This document shows positions 9,026 to 23,568 of a DNA stretch of 64,000 bases, piece after piece. A program made the position numbers and the translations under genes. Position 1 is the stretch's first letter. Each line of letters begins with the position of its first letter. Location: the NCBI GenBank assembly GCA_016933575.1, contig JAFGAR010000004.1:1-64000 (forward strand), written 5' to 3'. The notes below the pieces were generated by a model. It saw nothing but the letters and a program-made list of their open reading frames with translations, made no database searches and was not told the origin of the DNA. The DNA is from Candidatus Thorarchaeota archaeon. GTDB lineage: Archaea > Asgardarchaeota > Thorarchaeia > Thorarchaeales > Thorarchaeaceae.

Positions 9026-9574
9026 CTAAACATCCTTTTCCATTCGGTTGTCTACAAGTACCTCAGCGAGCTCCCCGAAGATATCAACAATACCTTCGCC
9101 TGTCTTCGCACTGGACTCGATGTAGGGCATGTCATGGCTGTCTGCAAACTCACGACCCTCTGAGGGCTCGACCACTCTATCGGGAAGGTCTGTCTTGTTT
9201 GCCACCAGCACCAGAGGTATCTTCTTGCCAAGCGCCTTGTGGAGTTCCTCAAGCCACTCTTCTAGCACGATGAAGGTCCTTCGTCGAGTGACATCATACA
9301 CAAGTAGGCCACCACTGCTTCCCCGGTAATACATAGGTCGGAGAATCTGGAAACGCGACTGCCCGGCGACATCCCAAATCTGCAATTTAACAGTTATTTT
9401 TTCGGAGTTTGGTCTGATTATATCGACGTTCTTTACAGCAAACTGTGAGCCAATGGTGGTCTTATAATCCGTCCTGAAGAAACCGTGAGAGAATCGCGTG
9501 ACAATGGCAGTCTTCCCGACCGCACCTTCTCCTAACACTACGATTTTGAAGAGATAGTCATACGTACTACTCAT
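9026..9574 (-). CDS. Rab-like small GTPase (eukaryotic signature protein)
   Basis: G1 GEGAVGKT, G2 TTIG, G3 WDVAGQ, G4 NKTD, G5 SSAK; Rab-type YDYLFK, KLQIW, YYRG, LVYDVT; no C-terminal Cys. Confidence 0.95.
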   Translation of the reverse strand: MSSTYDYLFKIVVLGEGAVGKTAIVTRFSHGFFRTDYKTTIGSQFAVKNVDIIRPNSEKITVKLQIWDVAGQSRFQILRPMYYRGSSGGLLVYDVTRRRTFIVLEEWLEELHKALGKKIPLVLVANKTDLPDRVVEPSEGREFADSHDMPYIESSAKTGEGIVDIFGELAEVLVDNRMEKDV

Positions 9575-10798: not shown

Positions 10799-13700
10799 TT
10801 GGAGGAGTCAATCGTGGATTTTGGAAATGTACTGTTAAAGTTGGTGCATAAGAAATCAAAATTCTGCTTTCGAATTAGTGTTGTAATGATTCTTATAGTT
10901 ATGATCTCATTGGTCGAATTTGAGTACGCTGCAAATCAAGCACTACCTGTCGATAATCCAGTGCTGATACCTTATGAGAACACAACTGAGAGTGGTGATC
11001 CTCCACGAAATCCCTCTTCGTTGAAAGGACTTGTCCAAGAACTCATCGATCTCCTGCCTCCATATCCACCAGATGCAGATGACGATGGACTCCCTGATGT
11101 AGTGGAAGCGATTATCGGAACAAACTCTACGAACAATGACACAGACCACGATTCACTGACTGATTACTTTGAGGTATTTGCAGATTCGGACCCCTTAGAA
11201 CCAGATACAAACTTTGATGGACTGCCTGATAAACATGAGTTCTACGTTTCAGTCAGCGACATCGATGGAGATGGCATACCGAATGTTTGGGACTTTGATA
11301 ATGATGGCGATGGTGTCAATGATGACCTTGATGCTGACCCATTCAGAAGGACCAATACACGTATGGAATTTAATATGAGTATAGATTTGAGTGGTGTGTC
11401 AACATACATCACCTTTCAGTTGATACCTGCCAATGTCGAAAACCTACAGCTAGTAGATCAATTCTGGGATTGGCCCTATGATGCAACTGGTGCTATGCAA
11501 GATTTGGATTCTTCCAAGGAAGATGTGAAAGTCATTCCAATGTTGAATATCACACTCAATTCAATTCCTGAACAGACAGATGTGGAAGACTACGGAATTC
11601 AGGTGGTATCGAATGGCATCCATGTTCCTATCAGTCCTGTTATGGAAAATGAGCGAGTAGTGGCATTCAGTAGTAAAATGTTCTTTCCTGCGACAGAGCC
11701 CATTATCTTGATGATGAGCGTGGAACTCGAATGGGAGGTTATCGGGTTCACAGACATTAACGCAATTGCACTAAACTCCTCATCCAAAGGATATGTAATT
11801 ATAAATTCAACCGGATATAGTGTAGCTTGTGAATCCTCAATTGAGAATGCTGCACTTCAACGTGTGATCTGTGGGAGGAACCAAATAGCACTCAAAGAAG
11901 TTGGTGGTGGTTATCTCTCCGTGACTGAGGATGGTCGTGTTGTGGCAAGTGCATCCGATATAGATTCTGATGAAACATTTACTGTTCACTATATCGATGA
12001 TACCATCATCACTCTAGAGACTGCAGATCATAATTATATTGGAATTGGAGATGGTGGATTTCTCATTGCTAATGCAAGTTCTTCAACAGCAGAGCATTTC
12101 AATATGACAGACCTTGGATACAGACCTGATTCCACATTGCTTGTCACATATAATGAAGGTTTCATGCTCACAGGAATGGCTGTTGAAGAGATGCATTCCA
12201 GTAGTGTAGGTTTATTCTATAGCTCAAACAGAAACATGACACTAGCAGCTGATATGATCATACCCTACATCTTTCAACATAATTCAACAAATCATCTTGC
12301 TGATATTCCATCACTCCTACCAGACTACGACATCAGCCTTCAATCCATTACAGATGACTTTTCCCATCGTGACGAGGCACTGATCGCCCTTAGTAATGAG
12401 CTGATCCCATCTGCTCTGGAATACTTGCCTGACAATGAAAATTATCCAATCATCATTGCAACTGAAGATGCTATGAAGACTGCAGACCTATCAGACATAG
12501 TTCCTGAATCCTTTTTGATTACAGGTCCTATTGATCTGAATTTGACAGTATGTGATCTTGTGACATTGAAATCCTCCAAGACACACTTCTATAACACATC
12601 ATCTAAATCAGCTCTCTCTTTGATGGAGGTATTTGATGAGATTGATAGCTGGGCACTCAGTGAAAATGCCACATTCAACATCATATCCATGATGCTTCGC
12701 TGGCACACTGGTGAATATACTATATTTGACCCAAGTACTCCAACGGTACCGTATTCACCTGAAACAAGCCTAGTGGATACAGTTGTCTATGTGACAGTAT
12801 TAGGATTGGAAGCAGTTGGTGTGATTTCTCAAGGCCTAACAGGATGGAAGGCTTGGAAATGGTTGGACTCCATGTATACGAAGGGATGGAACAAGGCATC
12901 AGTTGGTAGGTATCTCAAGACCAAGAGCTCAAGCACCTTGACACAGTGGTCAAAGGTCTGCAAGGGTCTCGATAAGATTGATGATACTTCAAAGTTTGCC
13001 AAATCTGTAAATCGTCTTGATGAAATCATGTTGGTTGTAGGTATCATTATTGATCTAGGGATCTCCATAGCGGGAGGTATTATGCTAGCCAATAGTATCG
13101 GAGGTAGTTTTGGGAAAGCAGTAGGTGCCACATTTGGTACTGTTTCAGCTGTTGTTAGCCTGGTTATAACAGGCATTCTCTATGGAATAGTCCAGATTCC
13201 TTATGTTGGATGGGTATTGGCAATTGGTATGGTCATTGCTGACATGATTGGTGGATACTCAGATGAGCTTGTGTCGTGGTTGACAAATGTGATTGTCGGT
13301 GATGTAGAGGTCTATTCTAAAGTGACACCTTCATTTGATCGAGAAGAAGATTTTGATATCACAATTACAGACAAGGATAACAATGGACTTGATGCCAACG
13401 ATAGAATAGATGTTGTAGCTAGAATAATCGCTATTCTTAATGCGACAGGCCCTGGTCGAAATCAGGGAATTAGTGGTAGCCACAATATTCCAAAAATCAC
13501 TATAGCTCCTCCATGGGGTGCTCTGTACTCCAATACATGGGCGAGTGAACCTGTTGAGGAAGAAAGTGCTACGATGGAAGGAGATGGCTATACTGTCAAG
13601 GAGCGGACATACCGTTGTGAGGCGTGGATTGAACCTAGTACAGGTATGCCCAACTTTCCAGTGACTCTTATCCTGCACAATGATTTCTATTTGAATAATA

Positions 13701-16700
13701 TCTACCGCAATTATTGGCTTGGTCTTTTCCCAGAATATCACTATCAACCGCTGAGTGATTCCGAATCCACTTTAGAGTACGCAACTCTCTATTATGATGT
13801 GATGCCAGATAGTATTGAAAGCTTCACTCGTTGGAGATACATAACTCCTCTCGACCATGACCATGATGGTCTGAATGATGATGATGAACTCCCGGGCATG
13901 GCGTGGAAGTGGGACTTTGATCAGGATGGTCTGAGTGATTATTATGAAACGATCATTGGTTCAGACCCAGGTTCAGCAGATACGGATACTGATGGACTTA
14001 TTGATGGATGGGAACTGAATTATGGAACCAATATCACTGATAGAGACTCTGACAAGGATGGACTGAGAGACCTCAGAGAGATAGCAGGATGGCAGGTTTC
14101 CTTCGAGTTCGAATCCACGCCATTCAAGATCCATGTCTATGCAGACCCAAGAATTCCTGATTCTGAGGGGGATGGGATTGACGACTATAGCGAGTACTGG
14201 AGTAACACCAATCCTCGATCTTACGACACGAATGGTGATGGGACATGGGATGAGGAGAAACCCATGATGCAGTATTCAATAGAGTTCGAACGCAGTTGGG
14301 GCACGGATCAGCCTATCGATACAACATTTGCTAGTATTGAGAGTGACCTCAATGGAGACCTCTATGTCCTAATGGGTGATGGTGGATATTCAAGTGATAG
14401 TAGTTATTATCCAGGTGCAAGTACGTGGTGGATAACAAAACTGGACTCAAATCTCAGCGTTATACCAACAGGTTCCTATTTCTCAGCATTTGATGGAGAG
14501 CCTATATGTAAGCCAGTATTAACAATCGACAAGGAAAATGAAACATTATATTGCCATGATTTCTACTCCTATCCTGCAGACTGCATGTTCGAATCATATA
14601 GTCTTAATGGGAGTACGCATTACGGTACTATTGATACAGGCCAACCATGGATGTATGATGCCAGTTTTTCTCCACCTAACATGCTACATTATATTTGGGA
14701 CATCGAAAGCAGTGGTTTTCTTAGTTTAAATGAGATCCTCACGCCATCATCATGGACTTACGTGTGGGATGAATCCATTCCCAATATTGAATCAGACTTA
14801 GGTACACTTGGTCAGCCCATTTCCTGTGCATATAGCAAAGAGAATCAACTCATGTATGTTGCCTGTCAGAATAGAGTATTTGGTTATGATCCTACTGGAA
14901 CAATCAGCCCATTTCTCTTTGATGGGACGTTCACATATCCAAGGGGAATCACAATTAGTGATGAGAATATTATCTATGTTGCAGATACTGGTGGACATAG
15001 TATTCGTGCCTTTGATCTGAATGGTGAAGCAATTCCCACGTGGGGAATCAATGGAACCTATGGTTTCTCGGGTTATGAGGAGGGGAACTTCACAAATCCT
15101 ATGGACATCACTGTTGGAACTGATGGTTCATTTTACGTTGTCGAGAATTGGGTCGAACATGGAAGGGTTCAGAAATTTGTGTATAATAGTACATGTCAGA
15201 GTGATCAGCTCGTTGCCACCGATGATTCAGACTTTGATGGTCTCACAAATGAGGTCGAAGTAGCTGGATGGTCTACATCGATTACAGACTCCATCGGCAC
15301 TCATCAAGTCAATGTCTATAGTAACCCGCTCCTCAATGATTCTGACTACGATGATTTAGATGATTATACAGAGAATCAGATTGGAACTGATCCCCAAAGC
15401 ATTGATTCTGATGGTGATGGATTGAGTGACGCCATCGAGGTCGAGCTAGGTACTGATCCTCTTCATTGGGACTCAGATAGAGACCTACTTGGTGATGGCA
15501 CAGAGATCACCTATGGTTGTAGCCCTCTATCAGATGATACTGATGGTGATGAGCTCACAGATTTTACGGAGTTCCTACTTAACTCAGATGCAAATTCAAC
15601 AGATACCGACAATGATGGTCTTGATGACAAGACTGAGTTTGATTTCAATTCTAGTCTTGTGAACGCTGATTCGGATGGGGACCTCATGTTTGACGCACTT
15701 GAGTATGAAGAAGGCACGAATCCCAACTCTCTCGATTCTGATGGCGATGATGTAGTCGATGGTATTGAGATGCTATATGGTACGGATACAATGTTAGTGG
15801 ACACAGATGGCGATAGAGCTCCTGATGGGCTCGAGCTTGTGCTCTGGCTTGATCCTCTCTGTTCTGATTCTGATGGTGATGGACTGGGCGACATGGATGA
15901 GTTAGAATTTGGCGTGAATCCATGGAGCAATGATACTGATCTTGATGGGATTCCTGACCTCTACGACCCTGATTCCTTCAACACTGAGTTGCTTGATGTT
16001 CTCATTGTTTCTGACTCAGACATTCTCCTATGGAGTGAAGACTTTTGTGAAAATCTGGATGAACTCGCTGATGTATCCCTTCTTTCCTCTGATAATTTCA
16101 CTTCAAGTTACAGAGATTCTCCATATGTTGTCATGATTGGTAGACCTAAGGCTAATGAAGAAGGAATATGCGGATTGATGTATGATGTCCTTGAGGATAC
16201 TGGTAGTGTCCTTCAGGGAATGATGCAGCCGGGAGCTCACATGATTGCCACTCGATATGGTGTTTGGACAGAGACACAGACTGTAGTGATGTTGACCGAT
16301 GCAACAGGGTATGATGTCTACTCGGTACTTGCAGCACTCAAAGGAAAGGAGGTCACTGTCCTTCCTGACACGATCCGGATTGCGTACTCATCCTGTGCTG
16401 TGAATGCATCCAGCTATGCCGCCCGTTACGTGATGGACTCCATTGATGCCATCAAACAGACAGATTGTATTCTTGCCTTTATGATTGATTCATCTGAGAA
16501 TGTCGTGCTCAATGTGACGAGATACGCTGAGGAAACAACGCCTCATCCCCTAATAGCCAGTTCTGGATTGATGAATGATGAAGTATCTCTTGGAAGATAT
16601 ATAGACATCCAACTCACAGTTGGTGGAACAGAGACTCATGAGGTCGAAGAAGCACTTGTCAAGATGTATTATAGGCAATCTGATCTTGATATGAACAACA

Positions 16701-17029
16701 ATGGATTACTAAACGATACAGTGGATGTCAACGAGACTACATTGGTCCTCTATCACTTTAATGATACAACCGGGGTCTATACGAGACTATCTACTGATTT
16801 GGTTTGGGTTCATGCATGGGGTGTGAATACCACTGATGTTGAGATTTACGGTGAACTCTATGCGGGATATGTATGGGCCAGAGTTACTCACCTATCCATG
16901 TTAGCCATAGCTGGCTCTATGAATGTGTATTCTAGTCCAGACCAATCTCTCCTAATGATTCTGATAGTATCCTCTGGAATTATTGGTATTCTTTTGGTAG
17001 TTTTCCTCATTAAGCGGAGGAAACAATGA
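10799..17029 (+). CDS. Giant membrane-anchored surface protein (DxDxDG Ca-binding repeats, fascin-like beta-trefoil, hydrophobic helical domain, NHL repeats, C-terminal TM anchor)
   Basis: 2076-aa ORF; N-terminal basic+hydrophobic signal; many DxDxDGLxDxxE..GTDP repeats; NHL motifs FTYPRGITI...YVADTG and FTNPMDITV; C-terminal TM + KRRKQ; many N-x-S/T sequons; exact start uncertain. Confidence 0.9.
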   Translation: MEESIVDFGNVLLKLVHKKSKFCFRISVVMILIVMISLVEFEYAANQALPVDNPVLIPYENTTESGDPPRNPSSLKGLVQELIDLLPPYPPDADDDGLPDVVEAIIGTNSTNNDTDHDSLTDYFEVFADSDPLEPDTNFDGLPDKHEFYVSVSDIDGDGIPNVWDFDNDGDGVNDDLDADPFRRTNTRMEFNMSIDLSGVSTYITFQLIPANVENLQLVDQFWDWPYDATGAMQDLDSSKEDVKVIPMLNITLNSIPEQTDVEDYGIQVVSNGIHVPISPVMENERVVAFSSKMFFPATEPIILMMSVELEWEVIGFTDINAIALNSSSKGYVIINSTGYSVACESSIENAALQRVICGRNQIALKEVGGGYLSVTEDGRVVASASDIDSDETFTVHYIDDTIITLETADHNYIGIGDGGFLIANASSSTAEHFNMTDLGYRPDSTLLVTYNEGFMLTGMAVEEMHSSSVGLFYSSNRNMTLAADMIIPYIFQHNSTNHLADIPSLLPDYDISLQSITDDFSHRDEALIALSNELIPSALEYLPDNENYPIIIATEDAMKTADLSDIVPESFLITGPIDLNLTVCDLVTLKSSKTHFYNTSSKSALSLMEVFDEIDSWALSENATFNIISMMLRWHTGEYTIFDPSTPTVPYSPETSLVDTVVYVTVLGLEAVGVISQGLTGWKAWKWLDSMYTKGWNKASVGRYLKTKSSSTLTQWSKVCKGLDKIDDTSKFAKSVNRLDEIMLVVGIIIDLGISIAGGIMLANSIGGSFGKAVGATFGTVSAVVSLVITGILYGIVQIPYVGWVLAIGMVIADMIGGYSDELVSWLTNVIVGDVEVYSKVTPSFDREEDFDITITDKDNNGLDANDRIDVVARIIAILNATGPGRNQGISGSHNIPKITIAPPWGALYSNTWASEPVEEESATMEGDGYTVKERTYRCEAWIEPSTGMPNFPVTLILHNDFYLNNIYRNYWLGLFPEYHYQPLSDSESTLEYATLYYDVMPDSIESFTRWRYITPLDHDHDGLNDDDELPGMAWKWDFDQDGLSDYYETIIGSDPGSADTDTDGLIDGWELNYGTNITDRDSDKDGLRDLREIAGWQVSFEFESTPFKIHVYADPRIPDSEGDGIDDYSEYWSNTNPRSYDTNGDGTWDEEKPMMQYSIEFERSWGTDQPIDTTFASIESDLNGDLYVLMGDGGYSSDSSYYPGASTWWITKLDSNLSVIPTGSYFSAFDGEPICKPVLTIDKENETLYCHDFYSYPADCMFESYSLNGSTHYGTIDTGQPWMYDASFSPPNMLHYIWDIESSGFLSLNEILTPSSWTYVWDESIPNIESDLGTLGQPISCAYSKENQLMYVACQNRVFGYDPTGTISPFLFDGTFTYPRGITISDENIIYVADTGGHSIRAFDLNGEAIPTWGINGTYGFSGYEEGNFTNPMDITVGTDGSFYVVENWVEHGRVQKFVYNSTCQSDQLVATDDSDFDGLTNEVEVAGWSTSITDSIGTHQVNVYSNPLLNDSDYDDLDDYTENQIGTDPQSIDSDGDGLSDAIEVELGTDPLHWDSDRDLLGDGTEITYGCSPLSDDTDGDELTDFTEFLLNSDANSTDTDNDGLDDKTEFDFNSSLVNADSDGDLMFDALEYEEGTNPNSLDSDGDDVVDGIEMLYGTDTMLVDTDGDRAPDGLELVLWLDPLCSDSDGDGLGDMDELEFGVNPWSNDTDLDGIPDLYDPDSFNTELLDVLIVSDSDILLWSEDFCENLDELADVSLLSSDNFTSSYRDSPYVVMIGRPKANEEGICGLMYDVLEDTGSVLQGMMQPGAHMIATRYGVWTETQTVVMLTDATGYDVYSVLAALKGKEVTVLPDTIRIAYSSCAVNASSYAARYVMDSIDAIKQTDCILAFMIDSSENVVLNVTRYAEETTPHPLIASSGLMNDEVSLGRYIDIQLTVGGTETHEVEEALVKMYYRQSDLDMNNNGLLNDTVDVNETTLVLYHFNDTTGVYTRLSTDLVWVHAWGVNTTDVEIYGELYAGYVWARVTHLSMLAIAGSMNVYSSPDQSLLMILIVSSGIIGILLVVFLIKRRKQ
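11072..11345 (+). repeat. Cluster 1 of TSP3-like Ca-binding peptide repeats
   Basis: DADDDGLPD, DTDHDSLTD, DTNFDGLPD, DIDGDGIPN, DNDGDGVND. Confidence 0.8.
13856..14250 (+). repeat. Cluster 2 of TSP3-like Ca-binding peptide repeats
   Basis: DHDHDGLND, DFDQDGLSD, DTDTDGLID, DSDKDGLRD, DSEGDGIDD, DTNGDGTWD. Confidence 0.8.
15224..15975 (+). repeat. Cluster 3: tandem ~22-aa DxDxDGxxDxxE..GxxP repeats
   Basis: About ten consecutive units, e.g. DSDGDGLSDAIEVELGTDPLHW. Confidence 0.85.
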
Positions 17030-17940: not shown

Positions 17941-18043
17941 GGTTATATCTAAAGCGCCATAGAAAAGATATCAATATTGACATTAGCTGCATAAATCAGG
18001 TACCTTTTTTTCATAACTGTGCATTTGAAAACCAGTGAATCTA

Positions 18044-19423
18044 ATGACAGGAAGACTGTTTGGTACTACTGGTGTCAGGAAGGTCTATGGTGAAGAGTTC
18101 GATCTTGAGATGGCATTGAATCTTGGGAAAGCCTTGGGGACCTATCTGAAGGGAGAGGGAACAGTCATCCTTGCTCGAGACGCAAGAACAACAGGATTGA
18201 TGGTGGCCGATACGCTCTCAGCTGGTCTACTCTCTACTGGAGTCAATGTGGTTCGAGGAGGAATCATGCCAACGCCGACTCTTGCTTACACGACAAAGAG
18301 GAAAGGATTTCATGCTGGATTGATGGTGACTGCATCTCACAATCCACCGGAGTACACAGGCATTAAGTTCTGGTCGAAGAATAGTATGGGATTCACACCA
18401 AATGAGGAGAGAGAACTCGAACAGATCTACGAGTCTAAAGAATTCATTGTTGCAGCTTGGGATAAGCTGGGAGAAGAACGTGTCTTAGAGACCGCTGTAG
18501 AGGACCATATTAATGATATTTTGAAAAAATGTGATAGTGACCTGATACGTTCAAAATCATTCAAGGTCATTGTTGATCCAGGAAATGGAGCTGCCTGTGT
18601 TCTGACACCGTATCTGATGCAACAAATAGCATCGAAAGTGATTACAATCAATGGTCAATTAGACGGTCATTTTCCAGGAAGGAAATCAGAACCTGAAGAG
18701 AGCTCTCTCGGTGACCTGATTCAGATGATGAAACAAACCAAAGCGGATCTTGGAATTGCACATGATGGAGATGCGGACAGGGTGGTCTTTGTGACAAGAG
18801 AGGGAGAAGTAATCAGAGGTGATAGAACCATTGCACTTCTTGCCCAAGACTATCTGATGACAGATAAACCAGGGACTATTGTGACCACAGTGGATAGCTC
18901 GCTTGTATTGGACGAGACCATCGAAAATGCAGGAGGAAAGAGCATCCGTACTCCTGTTGGTGACATTCAAGTTGCTATCAAGGTACAAGATACCAAAGCA
19001 GTCATGGGGGGTGAGGCGTGTGGGGTCTTCATACTCCCCGAGTTCCATCTAGCCCCAGAGCCTTTTCTTGCAGCCTGTAGGATCTTGGAGAAGATGGCTC
19101 GTACAGGAAAGAGCTTTGGTGAGCTGATCGCAGAGATTCCAATTTATCCGTTGATGAAGGCGAAAGTGGAATGCTCGAATGACAAGAAACAGGCAGTCAT
19201 GGATAGACTCTCAACAGCCCTGCCAGAGGGATTGAAGGATGTAGTTCAAGTTCTCACCGTTGATGGTATTGGTATCACATTGAAAGAGGGATGGATTCTC
19301 GTTAGACCATCAGGAACAGAACCAGTGATTAGAATTACCTGCGAAAGACCTAGTGCAGAACTGGTTGAAACCACTCTGAATAGTGCAAAAACAATTGTTG
19401 AGAGTGTGATTGATACAACATGA
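18044..19423 (+). CDS. glmM: Phosphoglucosamine mutase / phosphohexomutase
   Basis: LFGTTGVR, phosphoserine TASHNP, metal loop DGDADR, RPSGTEP; exact sugar specificity uncertain. Confidence 0.85.
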   Translation: MTGRLFGTTGVRKVYGEEFDLEMALNLGKALGTYLKGEGTVILARDARTTGLMVADTLSAGLLSTGVNVVRGGIMPTPTLAYTTKRKGFHAGLMVTASHNPPEYTGIKFWSKNSMGFTPNEERELEQIYESKEFIVAAWDKLGEERVLETAVEDHINDILKKCDSDLIRSKSFKVIVDPGNGAACVLTPYLMQQIASKVITINGQLDGHFPGRKSEPEESSLGDLIQMMKQTKADLGIAHDGDADRVVFVTREGEVIRGDRTIALLAQDYLMTDKPGTIVTTVDSSLVLDETIENAGGKSIRTPVGDIQVAIKVQDTKAVMGGEACGVFILPEFHLAPEPFLAACRILEKMARTGKSFGELIAEIPIYPLMKAKVECSNDKKQAVMDRLSTALPEGLKDVVQVLTVDGIGITLKEGWILVRPSGTEPVIRITCERPSAELVETTLNSAKTIVESVIDTT

Positions 19424-19502: not shown

Positions 19503-19910
19503 ATGAGCAAAGAAAAGAAAGAACTTGAAGATGCCGTCATGGAGGAATTCGAGTGGGCACTTCAAGATCCAAATACAGAGAAGATTCGTCAGCTCGGAGA
19601 AGTGGTGAGTATTATCACTACGAAGCTTACAGAGGCAATCAGTGAACTTCAAGTCACTACCGGTCAACTCAGATCACAGCTAGAATCCTTGGATTCGAGG
19701 GTGAGTTCACTCTCAAGTCGTATTGCAAGTGGCGGGACGATATCACCAGGAGCTGCATCTCTTGGTGGTGGTATGGGAGATGAACCAATCCCAACCATGG
19801 CAAAAGCTCCTACTGCGCCTCCGCCATCAGCAGGTGGAGGGATGAGTATGATGGGCGAATTGAAGCAACTACTTGCAGCCAGAAGAAGAAAGACTGAAAC
19901 CGGAGATTAA
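19503..19910 (+). CDS. Coiled-coil, Pro-rich protein with C-terminal Ena/VASP-FAB/WH2-like helix
   Basis: GGAG RBS; heptad region; PTAPPPS; GGGMSMMGELKQLLAARRRK. ORF secure, function inferred. Confidence 0.7.
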   Translation: MSKEKKELEDAVMEEFEWALQDPNTEKIRQLGEVVSIITTKLTEAISELQVTTGQLRSQLESLDSRVSSLSSRIASGGTISPGAASLGGGMGDEPIPTMAKAPTAPPPSAGGGMSMMGELKQLLAARRRKTETGD

Positions 19911-19919
19911 CAACTTCTG

Positions 19920-20573
19920 TCATAGTAGGGATTCAACACTATTCTCCTTGTAAAACGGACCAGCATGCTCAGGTAGAGTAATTGTAAAAGCCTCAGCACG
20001 ATCGCACTTTGCCTGTATCCCTCTGAGTCGCGTTCTAGCATCATAGAGCTTCTCATAGAAGGAGTCAATCTTTTGTATCTGCGATTTGTGTTCCTTCAAT
20101 GCATGTAGGGCAATAGGGTAGGTATCCGAGATGTTCACATGCACATGAGGATGAGGTATCATCGTATTGATTTCCATATTGTAAATTCGATCCACACGAT
20201 GTGCATCATCAAAGACGGTCGTGTGAGAAGCCCATTCGACTGCATCAAAGACAAGTTTTGCACATTGTTGATGATTCAGATTGTAGTCATCAAGAGAATG
20301 GGTGATGATGACCTTCGGGCGGGTCTTCAGTATTGCACCGATGATCTCATTCCTCAAGGTCATGTCGATTGCAAAGTCATCGCGCTCACTAAGATAGAGA
20401 TTCCGGGCTCCAAGAAAAGAGCATGCAGACCTTAGCTCTGCATTCCGAACCTCGTTGCCTGTCATGCAATGGATATCAACCGGAATTCCCTGGTCAGTGT
20501 GTCTTTTGATTGTGCCGCCAGCACCTATGCACTCGTCGTCAGGATGAGCAACGACTACCAGAATCGAATCCAT
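19920..20573 (-). CDS. bshB: PIG-L family deacetylase, BshB-like
   Basis: AHPDDE zinc motif, HKSQI, RGxxxxxxxAEAF; divergent from bshA-bshC. Confidence 0.7.
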   Translation of the reverse strand: MDSILVVVAHPDDECIGAGGTIKRHTDQGIPVDIHCMTGNEVRNAELRSACSFLGARNLYLSERDDFAIDMTLRNEIIGAILKTRPKVIITHSLDDYNLNHQQCAKLVFDAVEWASHTTVFDDAHRVDRIYNMEINTMIPHPHVHVNISDTYPIALHALKEHKSQIQKIDSFYEKLYDARTRLRGIQAKCDRAEAFTITLPEHAGPFYKENSVESLL

Positions 20574-20676
20574 ACGTGGTTCTTCTTTCGGTATCTAATC
20601 AAGTTTTGGCAAGGAGAGTTGTTCAAACCAAGTGCCTTAAAGGGGAAAAAACAGTACCCTGGGAAGGGTTTCTACT

Positions 20677-21840
20677 ATGCGCATCGGCGTAAATCTATAT
20701 CCATCAGTTGGCGGTTCAGGATATGTCGCGACAAGACTAGGACAGCATCTGACTGATAAAGGCCACATCATCCATTTCATCACTTATCAGAGACCATTCT
20801 CAATGATGTGGCAGCAGACAAAAGGAGTTCATGTTGATCTTGTTGATAGATTCGACTACCCTCTATTTGGAGCAATAGGACCTCCATACACAATGGCTCT
20901 TACATCAAAGATCATTAAAGTTGCCAAAGCAGCCGAATTAGATGTTCTGCATGCACACTATGCAATCCCACATGCAATGGCGGCATACATGGCTCGAGAG
21001 ATTGTCAATTTACCTTATGTTGTAACACTACATGGATCAGATGTTCATTCACTCGGTCTAGACCCAGCATATCAACCGGTCGTGCAGTACACGGTGGAGA
21101 AGGCTGATGGGGTCACAGCAGTTTCTGAGTTCTTGAAAAAGAAAGCCATTGAAGAACTTGGAATTGAGAGAGACATCAAAGTGATTCCAAACTTTATTGA
21201 TACGACCCAGTTCTCACGGGTCAAGGGAGTCAGACTTGTTGTAGAGAGTGGATGTGTGTCAGTAAGGAGAGAAGATGAAGCAATCGAGATTAGCCCTGAT
21301 GAGAAGATACTCCTTCACGCTTCCAACTTCCGAGAAGTCAAGCGTATTGTAGAACTCATAGAAATAATGCGAATCATTGTCAACGAGAATCCCAAAGCAC
21401 GTCTTATTATCGCAGGGGATGGTCCAACACGAATCGATGTTGAGCGGCGCATTGAGAAACTAAAGTTATGTAACAATGTACATCTCTTAGGTGTAAAGAG
21501 CAATATGCAAGAGATCATGTGTTCTGCGGACCTCCTTCTTCTTAACTCAACACTTGAGGGAATGCCTCTAGTTCTTCTTGAAGCCATGGCCTGTAGCCTT
21601 CCTGTGGTCACTACACCAGCTGGAGGAATTCCTGAACTTGTGCGTGCTGGAAAAGATGGTTTTGTGACTAAGGGATACGAGAATGAGGAATTTGCAGAAG
21701 CTGTACTTGGGCTGCTTAACAATGATGACGAGAGAAGAAGACTCGGACACGCGGGACGATTGCGTGCAAATGATTTCGATTCAAAGAAGATAGTTCCAAT
21801 GTATGAGAAGGTCTTTGAGGAAGTTCTCGAAAAGAAGTGA
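20677..21840 (+). CDS. bshA: N-acetyl-alpha-D-glucosaminyl L-malate synthase (GT4)
   Basis: YPSVGGSG, HFITY, HAHYAIPHA, TLHGSD, SNFREVKR are BshA-characteristic. Confidence 0.9.
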   Translation: MRIGVNLYPSVGGSGYVATRLGQHLTDKGHIIHFITYQRPFSMMWQQTKGVHVDLVDRFDYPLFGAIGPPYTMALTSKIIKVAKAAELDVLHAHYAIPHAMAAYMAREIVNLPYVVTLHGSDVHSLGLDPAYQPVVQYTVEKADGVTAVSEFLKKKAIEELGIERDIKVIPNFIDTTQFSRVKGVRLVVESGCVSVRREDEAIEISPDEKILLHASNFREVKRIVELIEIMRIIVNENPKARLIIAGDGPTRIDVERRIEKLKLCNNVHLLGVKSNMQEIMCSADLLLLNSTLEGMPLVLLEAMACSLPVVTTPAGGIPELVRAGKDGFVTKGYENEEFAEAVLGLLNNDDERRRLGHAGRLRANDFDSKKIVPMYEKVFEEVLEKK

Positions 21841-21852
21841 GAGGTAGGGACT

Positions 21853-23568
21853 TTGAAACCCAGCGTATACAATGTCTATCAGGACTTTATCTGGAAAGAA
21901 CAAAATGTCAATTTAGCAAGTACATTGTATAACATGCCCCCACTCACCTTAGATAGTCTACATGAACGAATTCCAACTCTGAAGAAAGAGTATCGAGAGA
22001 CGTTGTGGCACATTGAAGATAGAATGGACCAGTTGGAGAAGGCACTCATATCAATCAATCAAGACCTTCATTGTCTTAACCCCGAGGTTGAATCAAATAT
22101 TTGTCTCTTGAGAGATGGCGCAATAGAGGCTGCCCATCAGTCAGTTGTACTTGGTGGTCCTTCATACATATTGAACAAGGCAGTAACAGCTAATCAGGTT
22201 GCTAAATTTTGTCAGGACAAGGGGATTGACATTGGAGTATTCTTCTGTGTAGCTGATTACGATAGTGTCCAATCAGAATTGACGAACATACGCATTCCAG
22301 TGATGGGATCTGGTGGTACTCTGATTAGCATCCCAACGCCCGAGGGATTTGAATTCTCACCGGTCAATGTTATCCCTCTACCAAGAAAGGACTGGTATGA
22401 TAAAGTCGAGGATGATATTAGGGATAGCTATCGTCCAATGTTCAAGCCTCTAGAGGGACCAAAAAGATTGGTATTTGAGGAACGCTTGGAGCAAGCACTG
22501 GCAGTTAGTCGTTGGGGTTTTCTCAATTCTAAGACACTAGGAGAGTGGGCCATGAGGATCATGGGTAGACTCTTCAATATCGAAGGAAATTTAGGAATAC
22601 CTCTTGTTCCTGCTTCAACGCCTGAAGTGAGGGACTTGCTAATTGAGGGGATGGAGCTATTACTGGATAGGAGTAATCGGGAGAGGATGATAGATACTTT
22701 CAATGATGTGACCTCACTCATTGAAAGCAATGGTTACAATCCAGGTGTAGGTCCAAGAGCTACAGATTATGTTCCGTTCTTCTACGAGTGTCCTGAGAAG
22801 GAGTGCAACAGTGCCCGTACCGAGCTGCACTATGAAGACCATGGGTCAACTGCTGTTCTGACAGGTAAATGTCCAATCTGTTCAGAGAACATTGAGATTG
22901 AAACACCCTCAGAGAGTCCCTATTTGGGGGACATTGCAAGACATATCTCACCACGGGTGGATTCTAGGCAGCTTGTGATTGATACTATTATTCCAACTAT
23001 GGCACATATTGGAGGTCCTGGAGAAACTGCATACTATGCACAGGTTATCCCCAGTGCTAAAGCAATGGGATTACCATTTCCAGAGTTTATAAAATATCCA
23101 AGGGTCTACTTCAATACCCCATGGAATGAGAGTCTGGCGAAATCGCTGGAAGAGAAAGATATCAAAGTCCTGCATGGTAGCAACCTGTTCAGCTCTTTAG
23201 GGAAGCTCTCTCGTTTTAGAAAGAAGAACAGATTTGAGGACATGAATGAAGAGCTAGTGAATTTCACGAATTTACTACTGACCACGCACTCTGATTTGAA
23301 TAGGAAATTAGCTGAAATTGATACGGACATTGGTCAGTCATCAAAAGATGAGATAGAATTTCTTCAATCTCTCAAACTTGAGATAGAACGATATCTTAGT
23401 TGGACCTTTGGGCAGTATGCTGAAGAAAAATTTGGACAAGAGTCTTCATGGTCGTGGATAGAATGGGCTATCAACTCTGGATTCGTAGATCTATTTGGAC
23501 CATATGAGCGTGCATATGTCGGTCAGATGAAGAATGGTGCGACTGTCTTTGTAAACTTCTCAATATAA
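21853..23568 (+). CDS. bshC: Bacillithiol cysteine-adding enzyme BshC-like
   Basis: AHQ...GGPSYILNKA, DYD, HISPRV..R, IGGPGETAYYAQ; 12 bp downstream of bshA. Confidence 0.8.
   Translation: MKPSVYNVYQDFIWKEQNVNLASTLYNMPPLTLDSLHERIPTLKKEYRETLWHIEDRMDQLEKALISINQDLHCLNPEVESNICLLRDGAIEAAHQSVVLGGPSYILNKAVTANQVAKFCQDKGIDIGVFFCVADYDSVQSELTNIRIPVMGSGGTLISIPTPEGFEFSPVNVIPLPRKDWYDKVEDDIRDSYRPMFKPLEGPKRLVFEERLEQALAVSRWGFLNSKTLGEWAMRIMGRLFNIEGNLGIPLVPASTPEVRDLLIEGMELLLDRSNRERMIDTFNDVTSLIESNGYNPGVGPRATDYVPFFYECPEKECNSARTELHYEDHGSTAVLTGKCPICSENIEIETPSESPYLGDIARHISPRVDSRQLVIDTIIPTMAHIGGPGETAYYAQVIPSAKAMGLPFPEFIKYPRVYFNTPWNESLAKSLEEKDIKVLHGSNLFSSLGKLSRFRKKNRFEDMNEELVNFTNLLLTTHSDLNRKLAEIDTDIGQSSKDEIEFLQSLKLEIERYLSWTFGQYAEEKFGQESSWSWIEWAINSGFVDLFGPYERAYVGQMKNGATVFVNFSI

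Follow-up and report, generated by a model that had tools for sequence, protein, structure and literature searches.

The gene at positions 19,503 to 19,910 of the window, the 64,000-nucleotide stretch of Thorarchaeota DNA analysed here, encodes a 135-residue protein that is a member of an undescribed archaeal family; no paper describing this protein family was found in a literature search. We tentatively read the protein as an oligomeric tether or adaptor, whose terminal helix docks on the membrane or on another general target. Its conserved N-terminal helical block and heptad helix would form a stalk, probably self-associating, and a flexible Gly/Ala/Pro spacer would hold out a near-invariant, basic amphipathic C-terminal helix, which may act as the localisation or docking element. 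The likeliest target of this tail would be something present in all carriers of the gene, i.e., an (anionic) membrane surface. In some Asgard archaea, the same module is used as the tail of Arf/Rag-like GTPases and would place these GTPases at the target. A general docking or membrane-anchoring tail is likelier than a role in actin assembly, the function proposed by the first-pass annotation of this DNA.

The Gene and Its Predicted Architecture

The open reading frame is real, with an ATG start, 135 amino acids and a translation identical to that of the first-pass annotation, and both strings PIPTMAKAPTAPPPS and GGGMSMMGELKQLLAARRRKTETG are found in it. The features of the gene are as follows.

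19503 to 19910, plus strand: whole gene (P0001), 135 amino acids and a stop codon, from the reading frame translation and 312 homologues, with GGAG about 11 nt 5' of the ATG
19521 to 19640, plus strand: N-terminal conserved block, residues 7-46 (ELE..EFEWAL.DPN.EKIRQLGEVVSIITTKLTEAI), from alignments of the Thor-type proteins and of the broad family
19575 to 19727, plus strand: long helix, residues 25-75, with heptad spacing, a putative coiled-coil stalk, from AlphaFold2 (pLDDT about 90) and direct reading
19728 to 19832, plus strand: disordered Gly/Ala/Ser/Pro spacer, residues 76-110, containing PIPTMAKAPTAPPPS, from pLDDT below 50, alignment and proline statistics
19833 to 19892, plus strand: C-terminal motif, residues 111-130 (GGGMSMMGELKQLLAARRRK), a Gly hinge and basic amphipathic helix resembling the VASP F-actin-binding motif (FAB), from invariant columns, family logo, predicted helix 116-133 and a PSSM test

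The AlphaFold2 model of the protein, built on an alignment of 32 sequences, predicts helices at residues 3-21, 25-75 and 116-133 and disorder at residues 76-115, with a pLDDT of about 90 for residues 31-70. Read directly, residues 28-74 carry hydrophobic side chains at a 3-4 spacing (I28, L31, V35, I38, L42, A45, L49 ... L56, L60, L63, V67, L70, I74). This spacing and the predicted helix at 25-75 bear out a heptad helix in the stretch, about residues 28-74, that had been described as a coiled coil; the coiled coil and its oligomeric state are putative. Scans of the protein against Pfam and NCBIfam gave no family, and all coiled-coil-type matches were below threshold. The names "MazG" and "eIF-1/SUI1", which JGI gives to some homologues, are unsupported by these scans. 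Look-alikes of the protein in the ESM Atlas are unnamed Asgard clusters only, and the structure rows are generic long helices.

A Narrow Family with Two Invariant Blocks

A word-indexed search returned 312 homologues, almost all of them labelled Thorarchaeota, with identities of 59-84%, and two blocks are invariant in their alignment, residues 7-46 and 111-130; given these homologues and blocks, the gene is more than a product of chance. The first block is invariant among the Thor-type proteins and takes the family-wide form P..EK...lgevVEkim, and the spacer at residues 76-110 is variable in the Thor-type alignment except for E94-P95. A profile based on the Thor sequences gave weaker, full-length matches in further families of the phylum. 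Just 456 profile matches at E ≤ 1e-3, and 90 at E ≤ 1e-10, were obtained among 1.84 billion representatives, and the family is therefore narrow.

Twenty non-Thor homologues that were retrieved present the same architecture, are much richer in proline (PPPPPG repeats) and have the tail P-A-S-P-V-S-L-R-G-A-I-M-G-E-L-K-x-L-F-x-K-R-K. The motif S-L-R-G-A-I-M-G-E-L-K-x-L-F-A-K-R-K is almost invariant, and its Thor form is GGGMSMMGELKxLLAARRRK. According to the logo of 150 distinct tails, E0, L1 and K2 are almost invariant, conservation is strong at M-2, L4, F/L5, R8, R-6 and I-3, and the side of the helix opposite its hydrophobic face holds small residues (G/A/S). The first-pass annotation had staked its reading on the conservation of this C-terminal helix, and the alignments and the tail logo show it to be strongly conserved. 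The polyproline segment that it had described stands for one part of the family and not for the other: spacers outside the Thor type contain 36% proline, with a run of at least five in 127 of 199, whereas Thor-type spacers are weakly Pro-rich, with a mean of 17% and a median longest run of three.

Several genomes of families f17-f20 carry two to four family matches. Tandem paralogues, two adjacent copies each, are present in two f17 genomes (L021:82-973, minus strand; L022:2809-3602, plus strand), and a 217-aa protein that adjoins them (L021:1261-1914, plus strand) combines a zinc ribbon with a Vps36 GLUE-like match at the Pfam cut-off (24.1 bits).

Distribution Within and Beyond the Phylum

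The broad family profile detects the gene in 293 of the 400 genomes searched in the phylum and, among the high-quality ones, in 73 of 90. It is carried by 78 of 85 genomes of the window's own family, by 126 of 135 in f22, 13 of 14 in f21 and 18 of 19 in f14, and by all genomes of f15, f17-f20 and f28-f30. The same profile finds it rarely or not at all in f8 (5/31), f11 (0/22), f13 (1/12) and f27 (0/5). Actin was found in 26 of 27 sampled high-quality genomes, a sample that left out f11 and f13 and that included three of three each from f8, f27 and f10. The family is thus not coextensive with actin, being rare or absent in the actin-bearing f8 and f27. The Pfam profilin model gave no match in the window's own genome, and no match in its control either. 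This genome has 22 Arf/Ras-like matches, and its actin gene (contig C57) has two Arf-like genes at a distance of about 32 kb.

Outside the phylum, a homologue cluster labelled "archaeon CG..._38_6/38_8", which has no close match among the 400 Asgard genomes, sits in a 0.8-Mb genome (G400). Full-length matches, with E values from 8e-25 to 4e-6, were found in 7 of 41 relatives of this genome (0.5-1.3 Mb). The carriers outside the phylum (loci L074-L080; genomes G400 and G403-G408) stand at NCBI as "unclassified Archaea", with names of the Crystal Geyser type, and their small genomes suggest that they may be DPANN. Six of the small-genome loci were translated; in five, the stalk and a spacer with proline precede a tail that is still recognisable and has a basic KRK/KRR end, e.g., NLRKEIMVELQEILKKRK, and the sixth has a weaker, more divergent tail. 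The tail pattern kept outside the phylum consists of R-6, hydrophobic residues at -3/-2, E0, L1, K2, hydrophobic residues at 4/5, and KRK. These copies may represent a transfer from Asgard archaea or an older origin, both being possible.

The Pfam actin model, with which the actins of L. ossiferum and of the window's genome are detected, found nothing in six small-genome carriers, whose genomes may be incomplete. Four such carriers yielded no MIT domain, and three of four no clear Arf-like GTPase; a GTPase as the universal partner of the N-terminal block is unsupported in these organisms. Because actin, MIT domains and a clear Arf-like GTPase were not found in carriers outside the phylum, a shared target of the tail should be universal. 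The first-pass annotation had conceded that homologues common in actin-less lineages would speak against it, and this is borne out in part, by full-length, tail-bearing homologues in a minority of these relatives and by the missing actin in the six searched. The small-genome relatives temper the actin reading.

Gene Neighbourhood and GTPase Fusions

At the Thor loci, a PGM/PMM-type mutase gene lies upstream, and genes for a PIG-L deacetylase, a GT4 glycosyltransferase and a BshC-like protein lie downstream. This neighbourhood is one of metabolism (sugar, thiol), not of the cytoskeleton. In the window, positions 19,920-23,568, with 18,035-19,423, hold the PIG-L deacetylase (BshB-like, minus strand), the GT4 protein (BshA-like), the BshC-like Rossmann protein and the PGM/PMM-type mutase. 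Together, these genes resemble a cluster for the biosynthesis of a bacillithiol-type thiol, here in an archaeon, and the arrangement is kept in 10-12 related Thor loci.

The Loki-type neighbours are BAR-like, Elf1-like, radical SAM and eRF1/Pelota genes, and no linkage to actin, gelsolin or profilin genes was seen at the loci examined. Two of these neighbours recur.

L023:2248-2868, plus strand (and 10 other Loki-type loci); G138:C1:3020645-3021262: BAR-like 207-aa gene, from AlphaFold2 and Foldseek
L031:2094-2714, plus strand; L017:2123-2740; L019:2359-2949: Elf1-like gene, neighbour of the family gene

The 207-aa protein has no Pfam family, and its gene lies directly upstream, on the same strand, in 11 of 20 Loki-type loci. 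AlphaFold2 predicts three long helices (pLDDT 90), for which the Foldseek matches are mostly BAR domains, led by arfaptin (TM 0.60-0.67) and followed by endophilin, Pil1/Lsp1, amphiphysin, SNX, MIM IMD and PACSIN, all with weak E values of about 1e-2. A PDB profile search with this neighbour returned nothing relevant. In L. ossiferum, the BAR-like gene does not adjoin the family gene but lies at a distance of about 19 kb from those for 2DGel2 and profilin-2, and in the window's genome it was not detected. The Elf1-like zinc-ribbon gene also adjoins the family gene in 11 of 20 Loki-type loci, in either orientation, and its product has a long acidic extension ending ...GFLEF.

The complete module (profile positions 12-133) is additionally found at the C-terminal end of Arf/Gtr1-RagA-like GTPases that measure 399-464 aa (P0296, P0314, P0346, P0387, P0337, P0336) and of one HEAT-repeat protein (P0381). 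Every one of these proteins ends in the same helix, and those with a name are labelled Promethearchaeota. Since it is found C-terminal on both GTPases and a HEAT-repeat protein, the module behaves as a transferable stalk and tail. Fused forms are rare, as a search with the P0337 tail among proteins of 219-699 aa returned just P0337 itself. A BAR-like neighbour in Loki-type loci, together with a module fused to Arf/Rag-like GTPases elsewhere, is reminiscent of the pairs formed by the arfaptin BAR domain and Arf/Arl; this likeness concerns gene context and not the protein itself.

Two other features of the window are recorded here. Positions 10,799-17,029 (plus strand) hold a 2076-aa reading frame, probably for a giant surface protein, in which a Fascin-domain match (32.4 bits, above the cut-off) is accompanied by NHL repeats and bacterial TSP3 repeats; a fascin-type beta-trefoil in an Asgard genome may merit attention. 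Positions 9026-9574 (minus strand) encode a 182-aa Ras/Rab-like small GTPase (Ras family, E 2e-48).

A Possible Membrane Anchor or Docking Peptide

The tether reading draws on the position and character of the tail. Across the family, the helix follows a disordered spacer of 35-60 residues, carries a net charge of +3 to +4 and is hydrophobic on one face (L/I/M/L/L/F). In the protein of the window, helix 116-133 after disordered residues 76-115 has the layout of a candidate membrane-targeting helix, with z = +3 to +4 and a hydrophobic moment of 0.28-0.35. It resembles the targeting helices of MinD and FtsA in being terminal after a flexible linker, with a hydrophobic face and a basic end. The MinD membrane-targeting sequence has LKxLF in common with the tails and scores 6.7 bits against their profile, third among the control peptides after VASP FAB and WASP WH2. 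Unlike the MinD and FtsA helices, the tail is longer, contains an invariant Glu and Lys and conserved small residues, and always comes with its own conserved stalk.

Small GTPases canonically need a membrane anchor, and a module that serves Arf/Rag-like GTPases and a HEAT-repeat protein as a transferable C-terminal tail recalls the polybasic tails of small GTPases. The BAR-like gene directly upstream in Loki-type loci is consistent with a membrane location, and the persistence of the tail pattern in small-genome archaea points to a universal target. However, the hydrophobic moment is moderate, and the lipid-binding discriminant is carried by charge. The invariant Glu and Lys, with conserved Gly/Ala/Ser on the opposite face, fit a protein groove better than lipid. 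The BAR-like neighbour was not found in the window's genome and stands apart from the family gene in L. ossiferum, and the fusions involve one GTPase family and may reflect a single event. A membrane anchor also leaves the VASP FAB likeness unexplained except as convergence.

The same polar residues lend themselves to another explanation, in which the tail would be a short linear motif held in the groove of a specific protein and the N-terminal block would bind a second partner, giving a two-ended adaptor. We regard this as somewhat unlikely. It would account for the sequence-specific polar positions (E0 and K2 invariant; R-6, R8) and for the small residues opposite the hydrophobic face, and it is consistent with an N-terminal block as conserved as the tail, with a pattern that persists in distant small-genome archaea and with the adjacent Elf1-like gene at Loki-type loci. 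Yet the gene neighbourhood, which differs between lineages, offers no candidate partner, and the PDB profile search found no similar peptide in solved complexes.

The Lokiarchaeum Homologue in Proteome and Co-Immunoprecipitation Data

A single-contig genome of 6,035,313 bp (G138, family f21), which is taken as L. ossiferum, carries the homologue at 2,628,799-2,629,242 (L031:2857-3315; 152 aa, monoisotopic 16.13 kDa). The locus tags of the L. ossiferum proteomics are collinear with this genome, with 2DGel2 (02589), actin (03343) and 2DGel1 (04136) as anchors, and the product of the upstream Elf1-like gene, at 24.013 kDa, matches GNAMCCOK_02218 (24.01 kDa). From this neighbour mass and the collinear numbering, we infer that the homologue is GNAMCCOK_02219. 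This protein is quantified in 16 of 16 proteome samples at a mean log2 of 18.47, roughly in the top 15% of 3061 expressed proteins. The gelsolins and profilins of L. ossiferum fall within the top-500 range (proteomics preprint), and the abundance of GNAMCCOK_02219 is near the range given for them.

The published Lokiactin co-immunoprecipitation (co-IP) enriched actin, five gelsolin-homology proteins, profilin and an Arf GTPase. GNAMCCOK_02219 is absent from its rows with a log2 ratio above -1.06, and no 16.13-kDa protein occurs among the rows above 1.13, all of which were read. The experiment used light formaldehyde fixation, 0.1% IGEPAL and cleared supernatant (Nature 2026 paper), and, according to the authors of the preprint, it is biased against membrane-associated proteins. 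Because of these soluble conditions and this bias, the result is evidence against a stable soluble actin complex and no proof that binding does not occur. For the tether reading, an abundant protein that is missing from the soluble rows is in keeping with a membrane location.

Other co-IP rows were compared with the family and its neighbours. The co-precipitated Arf GTPase (04696; reading frame of 329 aa, 38.10 kDa) was considered as a carrier of the tail and rejected, the motif being absent from its C-terminus. The neighbour-gene masses of 34.6, 39.1 and 45.9 kDa have no match in the rows above a log2 of -1.06. GNAMCCOK_02218, the Elf1-like protein, is modestly enriched with Lokiactin (log2 1.36, adjusted p 0.034).

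The Likeness to VASP and a Possible Role with Actin

The actin cytoskeleton of Asgard archaea serves movement and changes of shape, and profilins and gelsolins are its only known regulators. The Nature 2026 paper contrasts this system with the formin- and Ena/VASP-driven migration of eukaryotes, and it names no filament polymerase for Asgard archaea. A protein that is abundant, present across the phylum and unannotated, with an end helix that mimics the filament-binding motif of VASP, is an obvious candidate actin factor. The first-pass annotation had proposed a minimal oligomeric actin polymerase or bundler, which would make the stalk the oligomeriser and let the terminal helix bind Lokiactin filaments, as FAB does, or monomers, as WH2 does. 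The proline tracts of the Loki-type proteins might then recruit profilin-actin, giving a minimal bundler or elongation factor that in some lineages would be delivered by an Arf-like GTPase. We consider this proposal unlikely.

The motif on which it rests was given correctly: the FAB of human VASP is printed as residues 259-278 in PMC10340426. A Smith-Waterman scan with this 20-mer ranks the protein 2nd of 3205 reading frames of its own genome, with a score of 45, although such a raw score corresponds to about E = 5 in one proteome, with nine points from the Gly run and a part from the Gly and Arg runs together. Against a position-weighted PSSM of 162 distinct tails, FAB scores 17.6 bits, above the background maximum of 16.2 among 986,908 windows of the own proteome, and only 0.04% of shuffled FABs reach this value. 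The score is 25.4 bits against the Thor tails alone, with a background maximum of 11.6. With the Thor-type tails left out, 14.6 bits remain (4e-6 of windows), so the result is not circular.

The control peptides narrow this likeness. The VASP GAB scores -4.8 bits, which is background. Control peptides for the WIP and WAVE WH2, for thymosin-beta4, for Lifeact, for calmodulin targets and for MIM are likewise at background, and the WASP WH2 is intermediate at 9.7 bits; the WH2 peptides span 2-10 bits. A PDB search with the tail profile found no WH2, VASP or WASP chain at E up to 10 and nothing relevant. The VASP-like C-terminal helix thus survives at the level of the motif, where FAB beats the proteome background. 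Judged from sequence, the pattern match is reproducible, but what it matches are two amphipathic helices with Gly hinges and Arg/Lys ends, seen against an archaeal background, and it is not evidence of homology.

The layout of the protein can also be compared with the EVH2 region of Ena/VASP, which comprises a Pro-rich region, GAB, FAB 259-278 and a tetramerising coiled coil (PMC10340426). Like Ena/VASP, the protein has a Gly run followed by an amphipathic helix ending ARRRK, and it unites a putative oligomerising helix and a Pro-containing spacer in one polypeptide. Unlike Ena/VASP, it has no EVH1 and no GAB (KLRK), its stalk is N-terminal (residues 25-75) and not C-terminal, its Thor-type spacer is Pro-poor, and homology is undetectable by any profile search. 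Loki-type tails start R-G-A-I-M-x-E-L, similar to the R-x-A-L-L-x-x-I of WH2, but the helix runs directly into A-K-R-K or A-R-R-R-K, with no LKK(T/V) at the right spacing. The linker of Asgard 2DGel proteins carries LRRV/LKHV/LVDV (PMC9433394). In MIM/MTSS1, too, a helical dimer (I-BAR) is joined to a region rich in Ser/Pro and to an actin-binding helix at the end. Neither EVH1, GAB nor the WH2 LKK(T/V) was found within the 135 residues, which hold no second motif. A forerunner of VASP/WASP, as further suggested, cannot be claimed, and it is no less likely that two basic amphipathic helices have converged.

Several observations favour an actin role besides the FAB scores, which lie beyond or at the extreme of background. 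An oligomeriser, a Pro-rich spacer and a basic helix mirror the logic of EVH2, and the Loki-type spacers contain PPPPP runs. Among prokaryotes, regulated actin is found in a single phylum, the one in which the family is concentrated, and the Lokiarchaeum member of the family is abundant. The BAR-like neighbour and the GTPase fusions recall the membrane-actin coupling of eukaryotes. The evidence on the other side weighs more with us. Tail-bearing homologues are carried by small-genome archaea that yielded no actin, and the gene is rare or absent in four Asgard families, of which two, f8 and f27, had actin in every genome sampled. The Lokiarchaeum homologue is not enriched with Lokiactin, unlike the five gelsolins, profilin and the Arf GTPase. 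Linkage to actin, gelsolin or profilin genes is lacking, as are EVH1 and LKK(T/V), and the PDB search and most of the actin-binding control peptides lend no help. The Thor spacers are poor in proline, and Loki profilins are reported, as cited in PMC8410842, not to bind polyproline. The claimed polymerase or bundler function is therefore unsupported, given the carriers in which no actin was found, the missing co-IP enrichment, the actin-bearing families without the gene and the absence of linkage.

The MIM1 and MIM2 motifs of ESCRT-III proteins are C-terminal helices after a Pro-rich spacer. The tail is similarly placed, and it or the IP..AP stretch might recruit Vps4 or another MIT-domain ESCRT protein, for which the window's own genome has an MIT-like match of 27.3 bits, below the Pfam cut-off. 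This is essentially excluded, since with hydrophobic positions aligned by direct reading the charges misfit the MIM1 consensus (D/E)xxLxxRLxxL(K/R), the CHMP1B MIM scores -9 bits against the tail profile, and no MIT domain was found in four small-genome carriers.

Significance

The most far-reaching version of the actin proposal holds that the Asgard tail would be a true Lokiactin-binding helix of the FAB/WH2 kind, and that the family, free-standing or fused to Arf-like GTPases and partnered with BAR-like proteins, would be the actin assembly or bundling factor still missing from archaea, connecting the membrane and the GTPase switch with the filament; the small-genome copies would be secondary acquisitions. 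We think this quite improbable. If true, the family would represent a functional, and possibly an evolutionary, precursor of the VASP/WASP/MIM design. Even without any contact to actin, the oligomeric tether that we favour bears on how GTPase switches, and perhaps membrane-shaping proteins, would be placed in the Asgard cell.
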